A model generated the notes under the pieces. That model made no database searches and was not told where the DNA came from. It was given only the letters and a program-made list of their open reading frames with translations. The translations under genes were made by a program, and so were the position numbers. From a virus, in IMG/VR virus record IMGVR_UViG_3300042731_004196, positions 1 to 37,056 of that record: 37,056 nt of DNA; one strand, given 5' to 3'. This document shows, in pieces, positions 942 to 13,857 of the stretch (position 1 is the stretch's first letter; each line of letters starts with the position of its first letter).

Positions 942-1114
942 GATCGAAGGCCCTCAAGGCCGCTCAGGTGAAATACCTGAGCGGCAAGCCGAAGCCGATC
1001 ACATTTCGGCTAGACGGCGGGCCGCGCGAAAAGCTTAGAGCGCAGCAGCAGGATAGTGAGAGCGAAAATCAGACTGCAAAGCGCCTGCTGCTGGATGCCC
1101 TGGCGAAAATCTAA
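938..1114 (+). CDS. Ribbon-helix-helix (CopG/Arc-like) DNA-binding protein, 58 aa
   Basis: GTG 938 is coupled to the upstream stop. PITFRLDGGPREKLRAQ...TAKRLLLDAL fits a beta-strand/helix/helix RHH pattern. Confidence 0.6.
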   Translation: MRSKALKAAQVKYLSGKPKPITFRLDGGPREKLRAQQQDSESENQTAKRLLLDALAKI

Positions 1115-1121
1115 CGACCAG
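1111..1121 (+). repeat. Half copy (CTAACGACCAG) of the conserved 3'-end element
   Basis: Matches the first 11 nt of the element at 2920-2941. Its TAA is the stop codon of the RHH gene. Confidence 0.6.
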
Positions 1122-1135
1122 ATAGGAGTTTTGCT

Positions 1136-1804
1136 GTGAGCAAAGCGAATCCGCAAGAACGTGTTGTTAGGCCACGTTTGCTCGACCTGTACTGTTGTGC
1201 GGGAGGCGCTGCGATGGGCTACTACAATGCAGGATTTGATGTGGTTGGCGTTGATATTTGCCACCAGAAAAACTACCCGTTTGAGTTCCATCAGGCCGAT
1301 GCGCTGGAGTTCTTGCACCTGCGCGGCCACGAGTTTGACGCGATACACGCAAGCCCGCCGTGCCAAGCCTACAGCGAAACCAGAAAGATACAGCGCAACG
1401 AACACCCGGATCTGATACCGCCGACACGTACAGCACTGCAAAAGCTTGGCTTGCCGTGGGTAATCGAGAATGTGCCTGGGGCGCCGCTTATAAACCCGGT
1501 GATGCTGTGCGGGGCAATGTTTGGGCTACGCACATACCGGCATAGGCTGTTTGAAACGAGCTTACCGATAACTGTGCCGGCACACCCGGAGCACACCGCG
1601 CCACAAGCGAAGATGGGGCGACCGCCGAAAGCTGGCGAGTTTATCCACGTGGTTGGCAACTTTCCTGGTGTGGATTACGCACGAAAAGCGATGGAGATTG
1701 ACTGGGCGAATAGGAACGAAATGGCGCAGGCGATACCGCCAGCCTACACCGAATATTTAGGGCGGCAACTTCGAGCGGCGCTGATGCTGCGACAAGCGGC
1801 TTGA
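1136..1804 (+). CDS. DNA (cytosine-5) methyltransferase, compact 222-aa form
   Basis: Motif I DLYCCAGG, motif IV SPPCQAYS, motif VI VIENVPG, an RxR-like YRHRLFE and a motif X-like AQAIPPAY. GTG 1136 follows TAGGAG. Confidence 0.88.
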   Translation: MSKANPQERVVRPRLLDLYCCAGGAAMGYYNAGFDVVGVDICHQKNYPFEFHQADALEFLHLRGHEFDAIHASPPCQAYSETRKIQRNEHPDLIPPTRTALQKLGLPWVIENVPGAPLINPVMLCGAMFGLRTYRHRLFETSLPITVPAHPEHTAPQAKMGRPPKAGEFIHVVGNFPGVDYARKAMEIDWANRNEMAQAIPPAYTEYLGRQLRAALMLRQAA

Positions 1805-1965
1805 TTTGCCCGGTTAGATTGGGCTCTCCAGTTGGCGCACAGCGTCAGGAGTTCCGCGCGACGCTTTACGGGTATACGAACTTCGACGCGAACGATACCG
1901 GCTTTGCGGTCTCGTTCCCGGCTAGCGTTAACGTCTTTTCGGTTTTGGCCTTTGGTGCTTGGCAT
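1744..1965 (-). CDS. Small basic protein, probable RHH-type DNA-binding protein (73 aa)
   Basis: ATG 1965 has GGAG 8 nt upstream. RERDRKAGIVRVEVRIPVKRRAELLTL resembles small plasmid/phage RHH regulators. The 3' end overlaps the MTase 3' end by 61 nt. Confidence 0.5.
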   Translation of the reverse strand: MPSTKGQNRKDVNASRERDRKAGIVRVEVRIPVKRRAELLTLCANWRAQSNRANQAACRSISAARSCRPKYSV

Positions 1966-2011
1966 GATGGTTTCTCCAGAAACGAAAAACCGCCCCGAAG
2001 GGCGGTTGCGG

Positions 2012-2233
2012 TTATGCGGCAAGTTGGGACTGGCGAATCCAGTAGAAGACCTCCCACGCTTCGACCCCTGCGGAAACGCCATTGTGGCGCATAACGCGGA
2101 TTCGGTTTTGAGCGATTCCGCTCACCCTGGAGAGCTTGCGAATCGTTACGCCAGTGCGGCGCATCATGCTGGAAATTTGCTTTCCTTCCAGTTCGCCGAA
2201 ACCACGATGAGACATGTTTTGGAATTGGTTCAT
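2012..2233 (-). CDS. Helix-turn-helix DNA-binding protein (Ner/Nlp-like), 73 aa
   Basis: ATG 2233 has GAGG 6 nt upstream. ISSMMRRTGVTIRKLSRVSGIAQNRIRVMRHNG is HTH-like. It is the first gene after the consensus leftward promoter. Confidence 0.6.
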   Translation of the reverse strand: MNQFQNMSHRGFGELEGKQISSMMRRTGVTIRKLSRVSGIAQNRIRVMRHNGVSAGVEAWEVFYWIRQSQLAA

Positions 2234-2331
2234 GATAACCTCTGGTCAGTTGTTTGGTTTCCGATTTGCTCCGGGACTCTATCCCGGTTTCGCCTCGGTC
2301 CCGACCTTTGAGCGGGCCGTTCGCTTAACTT

Positions 2332-2362
2332 GGTATCTATTATAGATACCTTACCGGTAAGG
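2332..2362. promoter_or_regulatory. Two abutting perfect palindromes (putative operators): GGTATCTATtATAGATACC and CCTTACCGGTAAGG
   Basis: The 19-bp palindrome at 2332-2350 covers the -10. The 14-bp palindrome at 2349-2362 fills the spacer of the leftward promoter. Confidence 0.6.
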
Positions 2363-2368
2363 TGTCAA
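2339..2368 (-). promoter_or_regulatory. Leftward promoter: TTGACA-18 nt-TATAAT (both hexamers consensus)
   Basis: On the minus strand, TTGACA is the reverse complement of 2363-2368 and TATAAT of 2339-2344. It drives the 2233-to-1744 operon. Confidence 0.6.
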
Positions 2369-2395
2369 GCACAAAGGTGGCGTTTCCGAAAGAAT

Positions 2396-2419
2396 CTAAC
2401 GACCGCCGTCAGCCGACGC
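2396..2419 (+). repeat. Conserved ~24-nt element CTAACGACCGCCGTCAGCCGACGC
   Basis: One of three full copies (also 2920-2941 and 5969-5994). This copy is not at the end of any ORF. Confidence 0.8.
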
Positions 2420-2472
2420 ACCAAAGGCGCGCGCGGCTTGATGAGCTTGTTAGATTTTCTTTCCCTCGGATG

Positions 2473-2501
2473 TTGACAGTACACCCGTTGGGTGTATTAT
2501 A
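2473..2501 (+). promoter_or_regulatory. Early promoter P2: TTGACA-16/17 nt-TATTAT/ATTATA, with the 17-bp palindrome TACACCCgttGGGTGTA (2480-2496) in the spacer
   Basis: -35 at 2473-2478. TTGTTAGATTTT lies at 2447-2458, the same upstream position as in P1. Confidence 0.6.
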
Positions 2502-2546
2502 TCACTCAGGGCGACGCACAACGCGAAGCCAAACCGGAGAAATAAG

Positions 2547-2723
2547 ATGCTGCTAACCAAAAGCGAAACCTACGACATTGACGCGCTGGAATTCTCGGGA
2601 TGGACTGAGGGCGACGGAAGCAGCACCGACGGGTATTCAGCATGGGCGTATTTCGACGCAGACAGGCGCTACCTCGGCCCTGATGAGTATGGTATCGAGC
2701 CAGAATTCGCGGATGCTGAATGA
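2547..2723 (+). CDS. Hypothetical small acidic protein (58 aa)
   Basis: ATG 2547 has GGAGA 7 nt upstream. 15 D/E versus 3 K/R. ATGA overlap with the following HTH gene. Confidence 0.55.
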   Translation: MLLTKSETYDIDALEFSGWTEGDGSSTDGYSAWAYFDADRRYLGPDEYGIEPEFADAE

Positions 2724-2923
2724 TCCCAGCAGAGGCCAGGCGAGCGCTGGGCCTCTCCCGCGGGGAGATGGCCCGAGCCATGGGGGTCCACCGCGAAACG
2801 TGGGCGAAGTGGGAGCGCGGAGAGCGACGACCAGATAACGCGGCCACACAACTGATGCGCCTGCTCTGCTGGCTGCGCGAGAAGCGAGGCCCGGCGCTGA
2901 CGCAGTGGCTGAGGGAAATCTAA
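2720..2923 (+). CDS. XRE-family helix-turn-helix regulator (67 aa)
   Basis: LGLSRGEMARAMGVHRETWAKWERGERRP is a typical XRE/MqsA-type HTH. It is translationally coupled to the upstream ORF. Confidence 0.75.
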   Translation: MIPAEARRALGLSRGEMARAMGVHRETWAKWERGERRPDNAATQLMRLLCWLREKRGPALTQWLREI

Positions 2924-2941
2924 CGACCAGCATCAGCCGCC
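2920..2941 (+). repeat. Conserved element CTAACGACCAGCATCAGCCGCC
   Basis: Its TAA is the stop of the HTH gene. Compare 2396-2419 and 5969-5994. Confidence 0.8.
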
Positions 2942-2957
2942 CTGCGAGGAATAAACG

Positions 2958-3179
2958 ATGACCGATGAACAGAACGCGAAACCTGAAGCAGACACCGACC
3001 CGCAGGGTCGGCTGGATGCGCTTGTTAGCTTGCTACTTCGCCGAGGCTACTACGAAGTAGACCCGCGAGTTGTAGGCGAAGGCGCTCAGCTTGTACATGG
3101 CAGGTGGTATATGCCAAGACTCGGCTGCGACACACTACAAATGGTGATAGATGAATTCGGCGACGAATTGGCAAGCTAA
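2958..3179 (+). CDS. Hypothetical protein (73 aa)
   Basis: ATG 2958 has GAGGA upstream. Coding-like composition; no motif recognised. Confidence 0.6.
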   Translation: MTDEQNAKPEADTDPQGRLDALVSLLLRRGYYEVDPRVVGEGAQLVHGRWYMPRLGCDTLQMVIDEFGDELAS

Positions 3180-3272
3180 CGGCGCTTTAACCAGCGCCAC
3201 GGCGGAGTAGAGATCGGACGCCGGAGTTTAACGCGTCTGCGTTCAAAGCATTGTTATGCGCGGGAGGTTCGC

Positions 3273-3470
3273 ATGAGGGTACAAGGCACGGCAGAAATGG
3301 GGCATGAAATCGCGCGTAGGAATGTAGACCAGGCAGTGATTCAACTTTGGCTGGCGTTGCGGGACTTGAGCGATTTCGATGACGAATACATGCGCGAAGA
3401 TGACCTGGATTTGTGGGGGAAGGTCACAGCCCACAGAGCAATACAGAATGCGTTTAATCGGAGCGCATAA
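3273..3470 (+). CDS. Hypothetical acidic protein (65 aa)
   Basis: ATG 3273 is preceded by GGGAGG. No motif recognised. Confidence 0.55.
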   Translation: MRVQGTAEMGHEIARRNVDQAVIQLWLALRDLSDFDDEYMREDDLDLWGKVTAHRAIQNAFNRSA

Positions 3471-3532
3471 CGAAAAAGCTCAGTTGTTGCGCAGGAGCGC
3501 AGCGACGGAGCAATCAACTGGAGCGACTGGTT

Positions 3533-3883
3533 ATGTGTGATTTTATTCTTAGCGTTGAAAAGGCCAATTTCCACCCGGGCGGGACAGCCCTCCGTGGCGA
3601 AGCCATGACGCCGAGTGACAGGTGCGCGCTCAAACCGAAGAAGGACAACTTCGGGCGCAAGCATGATCCAATTCGCTGGGTAATGAGTGGCGGCAGCCCT
3701 ATTACTGTGGCGCACCCGTGCAGCGCCGCCTGCCCTCTGAAAGTTCCCGCTGAAATCGGTGGGTACGGGAGCAGCTTCACTGGGCCATGCCCTGTGTGCC
3801 ACCGCATTGGCAAGCGTGCTGATGCAGGGTATGTGACGTGCCGTGAATGTGGTACTGGGTTTGAGCTAATTGATAACACATAA
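3533..3883 (+). CDS. Hypothetical protein with a C-terminal zinc ribbon (116 aa)
   Basis: CPVC...CREC pair near the C-terminus. ATG 3533 is preceded by GGAGCGACTGGTT. Confidence 0.6.
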   Translation: MCDFILSVEKANFHPGGTALRGEAMTPSDRCALKPKKDNFGRKHDPIRWVMSGGSPITVAHPCSAACPLKVPAEIGGYGSSFTGPCPVCHRIGKRADAGYVTCRECGTGFELIDNT

Positions 3884-3893
3884 CGTGAAGCCT

Positions 3894-3957
3894 AAGCCGA
3901 CCCGCGCGGCTACAGGGCTTGAAATTCCAGCCAAGAGTCGACGTGCGGGGTCGGCTT
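3894..3957 (+). other. Long imperfect hairpin (about 15-bp stem, 33-nt loop) followed by TTGTTAGCGATTTTTT
   Basis: AAGCCGACCC (3894-3903) pairs with GGGTCGGCTT (3948-3957), plus 5 more bp with one bulge. Possibly an atypical terminator or a structured RNA. Confidence 0.4.
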
Positions 3958-3991
3958 GGGGCACTTGTTAGCGATTTTTTGAGACTTAACG

Positions 3992-4627
3992 ATGAGCGAA
4001 TACCACAAGATACAAACCGTTTTTAAGCGTGACCCGGCCGCCAAGTACAGGACATTGCTGGAAGGTGACTACTCTTTGCCAGAGTTTGAATACCTCGCCA
4101 ATAACAAGTGGGTGTTCACCGAGAAGGTAAACGGGACCAACATTCGCGTTTACTGCCGCGGCGGAAAAGTGACTTTCGGCGGGAGGACTGACCGCGCGCA
4201 GATACCGGCAACACTGATTGAACGACTGAACGAGCGATTTTTGCCTCAGGTGGAACGGTTCTCCGAAGTGTGCAACGGAGCGGATGTGCGCCTGTACGGC
4301 GAAGGCCACGGCGCGAAGATTCAAAAAGATGGCGGCAATTACAGGCATGACCAGGACTTCGTTTTGTTCGATGTACTGGTTGGCGATGGGTGGTTACAAC
4401 GGCCTGACGTGGAAGACGTTGCAGGCAAGCTGGGGTTAGACGTTGTGCCGGTAGTGGGCGCAGGCACCTTGCTCGAAATGGTGGAGCAGGCAAAGGCGGG
4501 GGTTCAATCCACCTGGGGGGATTTCCAGGCCGAGGGGTATGTGGCGCGGCCTGCTATGGAACTGAGAGCGGGGGGCGGACACCGCCTGATTACTAAAATT
4601 AAATGCCGGGATTTCGTGTATCGCTAA
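3992..4627 (+). CDS. ATP-dependent RNA ligase (RNA_ligase/Rnl2-like nucleotidyltransferase fold), 211 aa
   Basis: Motif I EKVNGTN (KxNG), motif III FVLFDV, motif IV EGYVARP, motif V ITKIKCRDF. Confidence 0.8.
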   Translation: MSEYHKIQTVFKRDPAAKYRTLLEGDYSLPEFEYLANNKWVFTEKVNGTNIRVYCRGGKVTFGGRTDRAQIPATLIERLNERFLPQVERFSEVCNGADVRLYGEGHGAKIQKDGGNYRHDQDFVLFDVLVGDGWLQRPDVEDVAGKLGLDVVPVVGAGTLLEMVEQAKAGVQSTWGDFQAEGYVARPAMELRAGGGHRLITKIKCRDFVYR

Positions 4628-4667
4628 CAGTTATTTAAAAGCCGCAGGCGAGTAGATGACAACCATC

Positions 4668-4692
4668 GCCCCCGGCGGATAGAGTGATTTAT
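4668..4692 (+). repeat. 25-bp exact direct repeat GCCCCCGGCGGATAGAGTGATTTAT (copy 1), heading a ~120-nt duplicated intergenic module
   Basis: Identical to 5564-5588. The downstream ~100 nt of both copies align at roughly 75% identity by eye. Confidence 0.9.
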
Positions 4693-4790
4693 AACGCAAA
4701 TTTCAGCCGCGCCCCGCACGGTGGCCGGGGTGAGGCGCATAAGTTTCCGGCGTCGGCTGGAAATTTTGGTTAGCCACCAGTGCTCAATAG

Positions 4791-5078
4791 GTGACAAAAA
4801 TGACTGAGGCATTAACGAACTTCTCCTGGGCTTTGAACCAAATCAAAGCCGGAAAGAAGATGCAGCGGGCAGGCTGGAACGGCAAAGGCATGTTCGTGTT
4901 CCTCGTTCCAGGCTCGACTTTTCAGGTGAGCCGCGCACCGTTGCTCGGCATCTACCCGGAAGGCACCGAGATCAACTACCACGCCCACATCGACATGCGC
5001 ACCGCAGATGGCCAGGTCGTGCCCTGGCTTGCATCCCAAACGGACATCCTCGCCGATGACTGGCAGGAAGCGGCGTAA
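4791..5078 (+). CDS. DUF2829-family protein (Tad2-like candidate anti-Thoeris sponge), about 92-95 aa
   Basis: FSWALNQIKAGKKMQRAGWNGKGMFVFL ... WLASQTDILADDWQ matches the DUF2829 signature as I recall it. Start is GTG 4791 or ATG 4800. Confidence 0.78.
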   Translation: MTKMTEALTNFSWALNQIKAGKKMQRAGWNGKGMFVFLVPGSTFQVSRAPLLGIYPEGTEINYHAHIDMRTADGQVVPWLASQTDILADDWQEAA

Positions 5079-5115
5079 TGCACTGCTGCCAAGGATGGTG
5101 GCTAACGTTTCAAAT

Positions 5116-5154
5116 CAGCCGGCCCGCGTCGTTTGCGGGATCGGCTGTATTTGG
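5116..5154 (+). terminator. Putative intrinsic terminator after the DUF2829 gene
   Basis: CAGCCGgCCCGC / GCGGGatCGGCTG stem (11 bp, two bulges), followed by TATTTGG. Confidence 0.45.
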
Positions 5155-5184
5155 TGGTTATAAATAACATTGCTGAGGACTCTA

Positions 5185-5583
5185 ATGAAAACGGGAACAT
5201 GTAAACACTTCAACGGCACACAGCATGATGCTTGCGTGGCAGGCATCAATATCCGAGAAATGGCCGGCGGGGAAAATCGCGGGTGGGCACGTCGAATGCC
5301 TTGCATGAAAAGCAACGGTTCTACCGTTACCTGCAACCAGTACAGCGAGCCGACAGCGGAAGAGTTGGCAGCAGAGGAAGCAAAATGGGCCGAGATCTTT
5401 AAAAACGTGGCGCTGGTGCAACCGATAATGAGGGAGCTTAAAACCGAATATAAAGGCCAAAACCGGGATGGGGTCAGAGAGTGCCCGGTATGCGGAAACA
5501 AGCTGCATTTGGCGATATTCGCAGAGAACGGCCATGTTCACGGGATGTGCGAAACGGACGCCTGCCCCCGGCGGATAGAGTGA
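5185..5583 (+). CDS. Cysteine-rich (multi zinc-finger-like) hypothetical protein, 132 aa
   Basis: ATG 5185 has GAGGA 5 nt upstream. Motifs CKHF..C, CPVCGNKLH...NGHVHGMCETDAC. The 3' end lies inside repeat copy 2. Confidence 0.7.
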   Translation: MKTGTCKHFNGTQHDACVAGINIREMAGGENRGWARRMPCMKSNGSTVTCNQYSEPTAEELAAEEAKWAEIFKNVALVQPIMRELKTEYKGQNRDGVRECPVCGNKLHLAIFAENGHVHGMCETDACPRRIE

Positions 5584-5588
5584 TTTAT
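5564..5588 (+). repeat. 25-bp exact direct repeat (copy 2)
   Basis: Identical to 4668-4692. Here it encodes the last residues (..CPRRIE*) of the Cys-rich protein. Confidence 0.9.
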
Positions 5589-5684
5589 GACGGCCGGCGT
5601 GAGTAGCGCAGCCACGCCACTTAACGAAAACCGCCTAGCTTTCCCGCGTCTGCTCGACGCTGTGGTTAGGCGCTAGAGGACACA

Positions 5685-5972
5685 ATGAAACCAACGCAAG
5701 ACAACAATTTTGGGCGAGTGTTTGAACTGCCCGAGCAATGCCCTAAAGGTTTTCTGTTTCGGTGGCGGAAAGCCGGTGCAGATGCAGATGGTTGACTGGT
5801 TCAACCCGTGGCCGGACGGGCCGATGGTTGAAACCCGCCAGAGACGCGGGCCGAAGTGGTAGAGATGCTTCGCCTGTTCCCGATGCAGAAGAACTACGTG
5901 AAGCCGGGCCGTCGCTACACCCTCGTTACGGACTTCGGAGAGTCGCCGATGTTCGGTCACGGGCGCGCCTAA
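5685..5972 (+). pseudogene. Three consecutive short ORFs in three frames (5685-5795, 5782-5862, 5865-5972): either a frameshifted gene or tiny overlapping genes
   Basis: Each segment looks coding (36, 26 and 35 aa), but no single frame stays open. AGAGGA precedes ATG 5685. Confidence 0.25.
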
Positions 5973-5994
5973 CAACCGCCATCAGCCGACGCGC
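5969..5994 (+). repeat. Conserved element CTAACAACCGCCATCAGCCGACGC
   Basis: Its TAA (5970-5972) is the stop of the last short ORF. Third full copy of the element. Confidence 0.8.
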
Positions 5995-6007
5995 TAAACC
6001 CCTCTGT

Positions 6008-6025
6008 GGCAGCCTTCGGGCGGCC
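6008..6025. terminator. Hairpin with a TTCG loop between convergent genes (possible bidirectional terminator)
   Basis: GGCAGCC-TTCG-GGCGGCC, 7-bp stem with one mismatch and no clear T-tract. Confidence 0.3.
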
Positions 6026-6038
6026 CCTGCCCCGCCTC

Positions 6039-8885: not shown

Positions 8886-9038
8886 CTATCGAAATGCCCA
8901 CAAAAACCAATTCTTCAGCCCAAGGCGCCCGCCCCATCTTCGCGGCATCACAACCCATTCCCAGAAGTGGTGCGTCCGCGGGTATCGCAGATGCCAGTCT
9001 CTAGTCTCCATCCATTGCAAGACGTTGTATCGCCACAT
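8886..9038 (-). CDS. Hypothetical Trp-rich small protein (50 aa)
   Basis: ATG 9038 is preceded by CTGGAGCGACTTGTT, nearly identical to the initiation region of the 3533 gene. No motif recognised. Confidence 0.3.
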   Translation of the reverse strand: MWRYNVLQWMETRDWHLRYPRTHHFWEWVVMPRRWGGRLGLKNWFLWAFR

Positions 9039-9135
9039 AACAAGTCGCTCCAGCCGACCCGCTACCGCGGGCCTGGCTCATTAGTTGATTTAACGCTCCA
9101 GCGTATCGCGGTAGCGGTCGCCAGTTAGCTTTGCG

Positions 9136-9408
9136 TTATACGCACCCACCACAACAACCAAAACTTAAACCGTCTTCCAGCTTCTCGGCTATTGCTTGGT
9201 ACTCCTCTTCGGTGATTTTGTATTTGTCCAGCACATCGGCAGTCGATGCCTTGCGCTCAAACCGCATATCACCGCAAGCGTAATCTTCGGCGTTCTCTCG
9301 GTCATGGTCGTACTGCTCCCCAAAGTCATCGCTATCAGCAGCAATGCCGTTAATCTTGAACTCAGAGGTAGCGCAAAGCGCCCCGTATATCTCTAATTTC
9401 AATTCCAT
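9136..9408 (-). CDS. Hypothetical acidic, Cys-containing protein (90 aa) in a low-GC patch
   Basis: ATG 9408 is preceded by GGAGATAGAC. GC is about 50% by hand count versus 60-69% nearby. C-terminus is ..SFGCCGGCV. Confidence 0.6.
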   Translation of the reverse strand: MELKLEIYGALCATSEFKINGIAADSDDFGEQYDHDRENAEDYACGDMRFERKASTADVLDKYKITEEEYQAIAEKLEDGLSFGCCGGCV

Positions 9409-13294: not shown

Positions 13295-13430
13295 GACCTT
13301 ACACTGCAACCAGCAAATAGAAACGAAACAACCCCCAGCCCGGCGGGCGGCCCAAGGCCGATGGCCGGGACAGGTCAAGCGGGTAAGTGACCTGGTTCGA
13401 AATAACACCCGCAGCCAGGGCTCCGGAGCA

Positions 13431-13694
13431 CCCGGCTCCATTCGGCCCTCCTTGCCCGGAGGCCCTGGCATTTCAACCGACAGGAGATAGAGAAATGAAG
13501 CACATCATCATCATCGCCCCCCTCGCCCTCGCCCTGGTGGGTTGCGAGACGGCCCCCGAGCCCCCGGCTCCATTCGGCCCTCCTTGCCCGGAGGCCCTGG
13601 CATTTCAACCGACAGGAGATAGAGAAATGAAGCACATCATCATCGCCCCCCTCACCCTCGCCCTCGCCCTCGCCCTGGTGGGTTGCGAGACGAC
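13431..13694 (+). repeat. 132-bp tandem duplication (2 copies) covering the leader, SD, ATG and signal peptide of the lipoprotein gene
   Basis: The sequence from 13431 repeats from 13563. Copies differ by one ATC codon and extra GCCCTC units. Confidence 0.9.
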
Positions 13695-13857
13695 CCCCGA
13701 GCAGAGCCGGCGCACGGGCGCAGCTGCCCTGATGCTTGGCTCCCAGATGCAGCAGCAACAGCAGTCCTTCCAGCACCCACAGCCCGCGCCCCGGTATTAT
13801 CCGCGCAACACGCAGTGCTACCGGGTCGGCCACATGATCCAATGCCAGAGCTACTAG
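13627..13857 (+). CDS. Small lipoprotein (76 aa precursor; lipobox LVGC); in-frame alternative start at 13495 from the duplicated copy
   Basis: MKHIIIAPLTLALALALVG|C is a signal peptide plus lipobox. SD GGAGATAGAG. Gln-rich mature part with two C-terminal Cys. Confidence 0.7.
   Translation: MKHIIIAPLTLALALALVGCETTPEQSRRTGAAALMLGSQMQQQQQSFQHPQPAPRYYPRNTQCYRVGHMIQCQSY

Follow-up and report, generated by a model that had tools for sequence, protein, structure and literature searches.

A probable array of attC sites with inverted gene polarity in a podophage early operon that carries a Tad2-family gene and an RNA ligase gene

We analyzed a stretch of viral DNA of 37,056 nucleotides (nt), positions 1 to 37,056 of the IMG/VR virus record IMGVR_UViG_3300042731_004196, which is referred to as the window throughout. 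The region from 3992 to 5690 encodes a stand-alone RNA ligase, a Tad2-family (DUF2829) protein and a cysteine-rich protein, and it had been proposed from the letters of the DNA to be a counter-defence cassette bracketed by a duplicated module. According to our analysis, this region is probably composed of three consecutive single-gene cassettes, which are part of a co-oriented array of about ten attC sites without an integrase that forms an early operon. The sites have the sequence as well as the structure of attC, they are co-oriented, and one of them is present in each intergenic gap. The genes are on the same strand of the DNA as the attC bottom strands. Furthermore, homologues of two of the cassette genes, those of the RNA ligase and of a methyltransferase, adjoin attC sites in other viral contigs. 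The most interesting and least expected result of the study is the inverted polarity, which the window shares with the majority of the viral attC arrays examined.

An imperfect palindrome of the type CTAAC-N10-AGCCG(A)C ... G(T)CGGCT-N10-GTTAG was found in every intergenic gap of the early operon between 1.1 and 5.7 kb and additionally at 9.0 kb (Table 1). The attC site of aadA1 (59-base element) served as reference. Its sequence was verified with 58 of 58 nt in R100, directly after aadA1 and beside intI1, and the corresponding 60-mer matches thousands of other plasmids. Six further attC sites came from two plasmids, pSTM6-275 (estX, psp, aadA2, cmlA1) and one of Pseudomonas aeruginosa. A covariance model (R1) was built from the seven aligned top strands of these plasmid class 1 integron sites and the textbook attC structure, and was searched against the whole window without filters. 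Eight matches with E-values from 6e-6 to 0.04 were obtained, all located in the early region or at 9.0 kb, and within the 27 kb of replication and structural genes the best E-value was approximately 2.6. In the negative control, 64.5 kb of unrelated phage loci, only two matches at E<0.01 were found. A second, iterated model (R2) was built from 74 R1 matches in other loci. Here, six sites rose to E-values between 3e-9 and 2e-5, and two weak candidates (S3 and S8) were added. BLAST of S1 against plasmids, in turn, returned chance matches only, this program being too insensitive for attC sites, and the exact 3' arm common to S1 and to the solo half-site listed in Table 1 was absent from 185,579 genomes.

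The R'' and R' boxes agreed with RYYYAAC and GTTRRRY at 5-7 of 7 positions in nine of the ten sites, and in S0 and S1 both boxes agreed at all seven. With lengths of 62-113 nt the sites lie within the range given for attC, which is about 57-141 nt. In the full-length alignments to the model the spacer was unpaired and the L stem (L''/L') was paired. The unpaired spacer, the L-box stem and two extrahelical positions aligned to the model in S2, S4, S6 and S7. On the minus (top) strand an unpaired A follows AGCCG, AGTTG or AGCAG in S2, S4, S6 and S8, and an unpaired base follows the L'' triplet in S2, S4, S6 and S7; S1 and S5 deviate. It is the extrahelical bases on one arm of attC that define the bottom strand as the recombinogenic one. 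All sites from 1109 to 5671 are co-oriented with their top strand on the minus strand of the window. As a consequence, the R' box with the crossover point is located at the left end of each site in plus coordinates (4689-4695 in S6, 5585-5591 in S8).

No integron integrase was found in the window (best tblastn match of IntI1 at E=0.24; no recombinase in the Pfam and PHROG scans). Clusters of attC sites lacking an integrase (CALINs) are defined by two or more attC sites no further than a few kb apart and no intI nearby. With six to ten sites in 4.6 kb and no encoded integrase, the array is classified here as a CALIN. The features of a complete integron were not found: intI is lacking, and the driving promoter is of the phage sigma-70 type (2473-2500) and is located on the strand opposite to the attC polarity.

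Table 1. Coordinates of attC-like sites, genes and other features of the window (bit scores and E-values of sites refer to the models R1 and R2).
Feature	Positions	Strand	Remarks
S0, weak attC-like site	1109-1172	-	R1 17.5 bits, E=0.04; R2 17.2 bits; R'' GCCTAAC and R' GTTAGAT, both 7/7
DNA methyltransferase ORF	1136-1804	+	phrog_363, E=7e-42
Divergent sigma-70-type promoters	2339-2500		leftward 2368-2339, rightward 2473-2500; flank S1
S1, 62 nt	2394-2455	-	R1 27.3 bits, E=1e-4; R2 39.4 bits, E=7.5e-9; between the two promoters
Helix-turn-helix regulator gene	2720-2923	+	stop codon inside R box of S2
S2, 113 nt	2918-3030	-	R1 32.6 bits, E=5.7e-6; R2 40.8 bits, E=2.8e-9
orf73 (73-aa ORF)	2958-3179	+	S3 between orf73 and orf65
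S3, possible degenerate site, weak	3174-3259	-	R2 15.1 bits, E=0.11; between orf73 and orf65
S4, 72 nt	3465-3536	-	R1 27.9 bits, E=9e-5; R2 37.6 bits, E=2.4e-8; between orf65 and orf116
orf116	3533-3883	+	stop codon in R box of S5
S5, 96 nt	3878-3973	-	R1 25.0 bits, E=5e-4; R2 31.1 bits, E=2e-6; upstream of RNA ligase gene
Stand-alone Rnl2-like RNA ligase, 211 aa	3992-4627	+	adenylyltransferase domain only; PF09414, phrog_548
Repeat copy 1	4668-4696	+	21 nt of orphaned 3' end of Cys-rich gene (..PRRIE*), R' box of S6 and one more base
S6, 87 nt	4689-4775	-	R1 17.4 bits, E=0.04; R2 28.0 bits, E=1.7e-5; core of module copy 1
Tad2-family (DUF2829) protein, 92 aa	4800-5078	+	PF11195
S7, 64 nt	5100-5163	-	R1 22.2 bits, E=2.6e-3; R2 34.6 bits, E=1.9e-7; between Tad2-like and Cys-rich genes
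Two-Cys-cluster protein, 132 aa	5185-5583	+	C6/C17/C40/C50 and C100/C103/H117/C122/C127
Repeat copy 2	5564-5592	+	true 3' end of Cys-rich gene, R' box of S8 and one more base
S8, degenerate site, 87 nt	5585-5671	-	R2 only 9.9 bits, E=3.4; R' GTCATAA 4/7; core of module copy 2
Solo half-site R''-L''	5967-5998	+	GCCTAAC-N10-AGCCGAC; opposite, canonical polarity; just before terminator 6018-6037
S9, 107 nt	9035-9141	+	R1 22.8 bits, E=1.8e-3; R2 22.7 bits; between two minus-strand genes
aa, amino acids; ORF, open reading frame.

The original prediction included an exact 25-bp direct repeat at 4668-4692 and 5564-5588. This repeat is present and extends to 28 of 29 nt; the chance expectation for such a pair in 37 kb is about 6e-7. 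The accompanying motifs GGCCGGnGTGAG..GCGCA, TTTCCnGCGTCnGCT and TGGTTAG were found as well, and ..PRRIE* is in frame in both copies. In copy 2 it represents the true end of the 132-aa ORF, and in copy 1 the upstream stop is only 8 codons away. The claim that about 100 nt following the repeat align at roughly 75% identity did not hold. Beyond the 29-mer, the two copies agreed at 36 of 79 positions in register (46%) and at 48 of 84 when gaps were allowed (57%). A block of 74% identity (28/38) comprises only the final 38 nt (4736-4773 and 5632-5669), and the intervening 39 nt agree at 7 positions. Nevertheless, the local alignment of the downstream parts outscored all but 4 of 2000 shuffles. A search for the shared 3' block gave four copies in the window, two of which lie on the other strand. 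The motif GTCGGCT-N10-GTTAG occurs 14 times in the window versus 2.6 times expected, is concentrated at 2.4-6.0 and 9.0-9.5 kb, and its copies mostly form inverted pairs around a variable core. The exact 25-mer was absent from IMG/VR. Two other explanations of these sequences were rejected: a structured RNA in the two modules by the fold z-scores of -1.2 and 0.0, and a sigma-70, sigma-54 or extracytoplasmic function (ECF) promoter by the spacing of the boxes (inspection and promoter scan).

Under the interpretation as attC sites, the 29-mer is made up of the R' box, one base within the site and 21 nt beyond it. The 21 nt outside the R' box encode the last seven residues of the Cys-rich protein and its stop codon. 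In an alignment of 42 sequences of the Cys-rich family, which ends with ...C-x4-E*, the last invariant Cys and the terminal Glu fall within this stretch. Accordingly, the stretch is a genuine end of the gene at S8, and at S6, 41 nt past the ligase stop codon, it is orphaned. The simplest history would be that a gene of the Cys-rich type formerly adjoined S6 and was mostly replaced by the segment with the RNA ligase. S6 and S8, both 87 nt in length, are mutual closest paralogues with 60% identity.

The relationship of S6 and S8, the repeat of 28 of 29 nt and the 74% block, which bracket the gene pair, would also fit the original model. Here the Tad2-like and the Cys-rich gene, with the ligase gene nearby, form one cassette that is exchanged by homologous recombination between private modules of about 120 nt. 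We consider this very unlikely. Both genes are indeed flanked by the modules, but an element of the same family (S7) separates them, another one (S5) is located upstream of the ligase gene, and related elements bound every neighbouring gene. Moreover, the modules are only 46% identical in register beyond the 29-mer. The family as a whole matches integron attC, and it occurs both in bacterial integron arrays and in at least 120 contigs of viruses. Because each gene has its own boundary element out of a family of about ten attC-like sites, the unit is not a privately bracketed two-gene cassette. From the original prediction we thus retain the general idea of gain or replacement of cassettes at a reused boundary sequence, but not a unit of two or three genes with a private duplication.

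Many copies of an imperfect palindrome in intergenic DNA might also be taken for selfish miniature repeats, similar to repetitive extragenic palindromic (REP) elements or to miniature inverted-repeat transposable elements (MITEs), which have spread within the genome and are unrelated to integrons. This explanation is extremely improbable. The copies are 40-60% identical and strictly co-oriented, no flanking target duplications are present, and the elements were found by a model trained solely on plasmid integron attC sites.

With regard to polarity, all nine gene-flanked sites of the window have their neighbouring genes on the opposite strand, and S9 flips along with its minus-strand neighbours. 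In the seven reference plasmid cassettes the ORF lies on the attC top strand. A locus pattern (CTAAC-N10-AGCCG-N8-38-CGGCT-N10-GTTAG) was searched and found in at least 120 IMG/VR contigs (L011-L130) and in at least 120 bacterial genome contigs (L138-L257). Among the bacteria, the pattern is typical of integron arrays on the chromosomes of Xanthomonadales/Lysobacterales (Luteimonas, Lysobacter, Xanthomonas and relatives) and Burkholderiales. Long co-oriented arrays were present in many viral loci, and several viral loci contained phage structural or replication genes; some are temperate, with phage-type serine or tyrosine integrases. A near-full-length IntI homologue was found only in L041 and L062 out of 120 viral loci examined, and short fragment matches in a few others.

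The polarity was called by an identical procedure in both sets, the strand of the site by a profile hidden Markov model and the strand of the gene by a longest-ORF rule. Of the bacterial cassettes 195 were sense, 25 antisense and 74 unclear. The viral cassettes showed the reverse distribution (70 antisense, 14 sense, 51 unclear). As an independent check, 63 of the clearly antisense-called viral cassette ORFs were compared with Pfam and matched twelve families, and the 63 longest sense ORFs matched none. Among the twelve are four N6/N4 methylases, Dam, a C5 methylase, Mom, N4 gp49 and a crAss001 protein. A coding-strand rule based on GC content at third minus second codon positions (GC3-minus-GC2) was dropped because it did not work even for the bacterial control (67 to 62), and was replaced by ORF length together with Pfam support. 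Approximately one fifth of the antisense viral cassette ORFs begin with MNELL... if they are extended by 30 nt into the upstream site; MNELL is the translation of ATGAATGAATTGTTAGG within the arm of attC. The attC site may supply start codons here, or MNELL may be an artefact of the choice of the leftmost start.

Among isolate phages the aadA/Xanthomonadales type of attC consensus is rare. It was found in only 2 of 50,697 INPHARED records, one of them P1 with a class 1 integron, and this rarity may be the reason why the pattern went unnoticed. In the literature searched we found no published description of the inverted polarity, and none of Tad2 or RNA ligase genes as attC-bounded cassettes.

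A role specific to the coding strand would account for the viral polarity bias as well. The main rival to an attC array, which we regard as unlikely, assumes that the palindromes now act at the RNA level as intercistronic hairpins of a polycistronic early mRNA (processing, 3'-end protection or attenuation), comparable to the RNase III sites of the T7 early region, and that their likeness to attC is due to descent or convergence. The arrangement of one element per intergenic gap of a single operon, 13-24 nt before the next start codon, is in agreement with such a role. RNA folds of the stretches with S5 (3884-3991) and S7 (5079-5184) are much more stable than those of shuffled sequences (z=-4.0 and -3.0). 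In S8 the L boxes are changed to AGCAG/CTACT, and the stem is kept on the plus (mRNA) strand by a G-T (G-U) pair with a C-A mismatch on the other strand. In addition, a run of six T (3974-3985) starts 3 nt past S5. With this run, the long S5 hairpin could double as an intrinsic terminator or attenuator immediately ahead of the ligase gene; none of the other sites has such a run. However, S1, one of the best-scoring sites, lies between the divergent promoters and hence outside either transcript. A hairpin needs neither RYYYAAC/GTTRRRY boxes nor an unpaired spacer or fixed extrahelical bases. The stretches with S6 (4660-4799) and S8 (5556-5684) fold no better than shuffles (z=-1.2 and 0.0), and no Rfam family was matched between 2200 and 6100, the sole match at gathering level in the window being Proteo-phage-1.

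The recurrence of cassette genes beside attC sites in other contigs supports an array of cassettes. A homologue of the RNA ligase (67% aa identity) in the IMG/VR locus L077 has an upstream attC-like site of the same inverted polarity (R2 26.5 bits, E=2e-6), and a second site begins in the ligase stop codon, at the end of the contig. Among the sites of the window, S5, which is located upstream of the ligase gene, is nearest to the upstream L077 site (61%). This fits a mobile unit that consists of an attC site followed by its gene. The methyltransferase is 79% identical to a homologue in L128 and 46% to one in L055, both of which abut attC sites; in the window, S0 abuts or overlaps the start of the methyltransferase ORF. 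S2 shares 74% identity across 113 nt with an element in the locus L088.

Several observations weigh against the interpretation as an array of attC cassettes. The E-values of the home-made models R1 and R2 are rough. With R1 the sites of the window reached 17-33 bits versus 35-80 bits typical in other viral and bacterial loci, which indicates that they are divergent or partly decayed. S8 fails the attC model and, with GTC in place of GTT as its core, probably no longer recombines well. The canonical layout, with the ORF on the attC top strand and its 3' end beside R'', was not found in the window. Being antisense to the attC top strand, its genes cannot simply derive from expressed bacterial cassettes. 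Homologues of the Tad2-like protein (75-91% identity) in seven other phage contigs have no attC flanks; they sit beside SSB, after ERF, after lysis genes or between portal and scaffold, and the DNA similarity to these contigs ends within the ORF. The Tad2-like gene is thus not generally an attC cassette. Finally, the phage encodes no integrase, and no relative with a different cassette content was found, and gain or loss at the G|TT junction was consequently not observed for this phage. The only other contig with these genes, Logan SRR11712615 (L003), is 100% identical across 10.3 kb. There was no near match to the window among the INPHARED phages, and searches for loci by their primase in IMG/VR and in JGI metagenomes yielded nothing closer than relatives of 30-32%.

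The assignment of the second gene of the region to DUF2829/Tad2 was confirmed by Pfam profile search (PF11195, E=2.2e-26, 92.6 bits versus a cutoff of 25). Profile matches in the PDB were ModTad2 (8V3E/9EIB, E=1e-18), HgmTad2 (8KBI, 3e-14) and SPO1 Tad2 (8SME, 2e-12), and the identity to ModTad2 was about 39% across 84 residues. The pocket residues W26, N27, G28, S79, T81 and D82 are conserved and correspond to W21, N22, G23, S90, T92 and D93 of HgmTad2; M76, V84, W87 and L88 are likewise conserved. In HgmTad2, mutations of W21/N22 and of S90/T92/D93 abolished the binding of gcADPR (PMC10680739). The protein thus shares its Pfam family and validated pocket residues with the sponges SPO1 gp34.65 (gcADPR), ModTad2 (His-ADPR) and HgmTad2/AcrIIA7 (gcADPR and cyclic dinucleotides).

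We regard the Tad2-like protein as a candidate sponge for ADP-ribose (ADPR)-type immune signals made by TIR proteins. The predicted family holds, but gcADPR is not the sole candidate ligand. ModTad2, the closest solved relative, sequesters His-ADPR and acts against type II Thoeris, whereas it did not inhibit type I (bioRxiv 2024.01.03.573942). For this reason His-ADPR, gcADPR or another ADPR derivative are possible ligands. Binding of cyclic dinucleotides would be unlikely, since the insertion that corresponds to that of HgmTad2 is short here, as judged from its length. In this respect the protein resembles SPO1 Tad2, unlike HgmTad2.

The RNA ligase was correctly predicted to have all nucleotidyltransferase motifs (PF09414, E=8e-20, 72 bits versus a cutoff of 27). 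EKVNGTN with the motif I lysine, YGEGHG, FVLFDV, EGYVARP and ITKIK align with motifs I, III, IIIa, IV and V of the adenylyltransferase domain of T4 Rnl2. The match to the T4 Rnl2 structure 1S68 (E=4.6e-6) covered the N-terminal domain only (1S68/2HVQ), and the protein ends at residue 211. In contrast to T4 Rnl2, the C-terminal domain is absent, which T4 Rnl2 needs for the adenylate-transfer step. No end-healing kinase/phosphatase (Pnkp partner) turned up among the 36 ORFs of the window scanned, with small ORFs only partly covered. The proposed repair of tRNAs is weakened by these results, the enzyme being of the Rnl2 type without the C-terminal domain and not of the Rnl1 type. Since an end-healing enzyme was not among the scanned ORFs, the repair of cuts by anticodon nucleases is only one possibility.

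The Cys-rich protein belongs to a family of 1141 representative clusters (50% identity). Eight cysteines, arranged in two groups, were invariant or nearly so in the alignment of 42 sequences. An AlphaFold2 model with a predicted local distance difference test (pLDDT) score of 94 has an N-terminal Cys knot, a helix of 30 residues and a three-stranded zinc ribbon. Pfam returned nothing for this protein, and PHROG gave sub-threshold matches only (E approximately 1e-3, families of unknown function). In the PDB neither a profile match nor a Foldseek match was obtained (best E 0.77).

CALINs have been described in phages before. Qi et al. (2023, Front Microbiol, PMC9892861) showed that IntI1 recombines attC sites of phages into attI1, and their survey found only 17 CALINs in 10,705 isolate phage genomes, mostly with 2-3 sites. 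The array of the window has in common with them that attC sites without intI occur in phages, including virulent ones, and that DNA methyltransferases are often carried. It differs in that about ten sites make up a whole early operon with a Tad2-family gene and an RNA ligase gene. The genes of the window are furthermore antisense, and the orientation of ORFs relative to the attC strand is not discussed in PMC9892861.

The attC sites of class 1 integrons (aadA1, aadA2, cmlA1) and of Xanthomonadales integrons share with the sites of the window the sequence CTAAC-N10-AGCCG(A)C...G(T)CGGCT-N10-GTTAG, similar lengths and the extra base at the same position of the stem. In integrons, however, the ORF is found on the top strand upstream of its attC site and is expressed from Pc beside intI/attI. 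The ORFs of the window are on the bottom-strand side and have a phage promoter, intI and attI are lacking, and the scores are lower.

Intergenic stem-loops that punctuate early, accessory or host-takeover genes are also known from the promoter-early stem-loop (PeSL) cassettes of T4-type phages and from the RNase III sites that lie between T7 early genes, and are thought to promote modular shuffling or the processing of mRNA. The elements of the window are similar to both as repeated intergenic stem-loops but differ by the sequence and structure of attC. Unlike in PeSL cassettes, there is no promoter per element; a single match near a site (4656-4685) reached 9 of 12 positions.

The virus is an SU10-like podophage, and the window corresponds to contig Ga0373606_0000022 (37.5 kb) of the JGI metagenome 3300035150. 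An SU10-type major capsid protein and adaptor, a portal protein and a large terminase are encoded in the window, together with a replication block of Prim-Pol/DUF5906 primase, PD-(D/E)XK exonuclease, Enc34-type ssDNA-binding protein, DNA polymerase A and helicase. The divergent promoters matched the consensus at 12 of 12 (leftward) and 11 of 12 (rightward) positions in the promoter scan. The rightward promoter heads the early operon, a series of small plus-strand genes, which stops at a terminator-like hairpin (6018-6037) that faces the convergent primase gene.

Within the operon, orf73 overlaps S2 by its first 24 codons, the called start being placed in the long central loop of this site. Either the true start is located further downstream, or the loop of S2 supplies a ribosome-binding site and the start codon. 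The C-terminus of orf116 shows a zinc-ribbon-like CxxC...CxxC motif, and homologues with 46% identity are present in two IMG/VR contigs (L028 and L115) with attC arrays a few kb off. Behind S8, three short ORFs (5685-5795, 5710-5862 and 5856-5972) in three different frames resemble a broken gene, and the stop codon of the last one lies inside the R'' box of the solo half-site. The broken gene with the half-site (5685-5998) may represent a truncated canonical cassette.

Outside the operon, the Proteo-phage-1 sRNA (small RNA) match of Rfam is located at 13333-13416 (61.3 bits versus a gathering score of 42). It is directly followed by two tandem copies of a unit of about 140 nt with 89% identity (13419-13702). 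Tandem repeats with a period of 15 nt are present at both contig ends (1-91 and 37026-37056) and may result from an assembly wrap-around or represent terminal repeats.

Under the interpretation as an integrase-less attC array, the operon would have been assembled, and could be reshuffled, through site-specific recombination of folded attC strands by an integron integrase that the host provides in trans. A second route may be ordinary homologous recombination between the sites. The sites of the window would be predicted to recombine still, with S3 and S8 (GTC core) apparently decaying. The payload would be counter-defence: early in infection, the Tad2-like protein would sequester a TIR-derived ADPR signal (His-ADPR or gcADPR), the methyltransferase would protect the DNA and the ligase would reseal nicked RNA.

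A more far-reaching proposal, which we put forward as possible but rather doubtful, is that phages keep their own pool of integron-type cassettes in mirror-image polarity, and that host integrases acting in trans shuffle these cassettes among phage early operons. In such a pool the attC bottom strand would lie on the coding strand, and the mobile unit would be an attC site followed by a gene. Its payload would comprise methyltransferases, Mom, the Tad2-family sponge, the RNA ligase and many genes of unknown function. The inversion may place the recombinogenic strand on the non-template or lagging-strand side and thereby favour its folding. As a swapped cassette would be antisense to the promoter of the recipient, the phage and the bacterial cassette pools are proposed to be transcriptionally insulated from each other.

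Integrons are gene-capture platforms of bacteria, and recent work has shown that anti-phage defence systems are stored in their cassettes. If the mirror-image pool exists and serves the exchange of counter-defence genes, both sides of the arms race would use one recombination machinery with the host integrase as a shared engine. New anti-defence genes of uncultivated phages could then be located cheaply, with attC-like sites as a sequence marker. The window itself provides two candidates, namely the widespread two-Cys-cluster family, for which the model is confident and no fold is known, and the domain-minimal RNA ligase. The polarity rule, finally, can be checked on all of IMG/VR.

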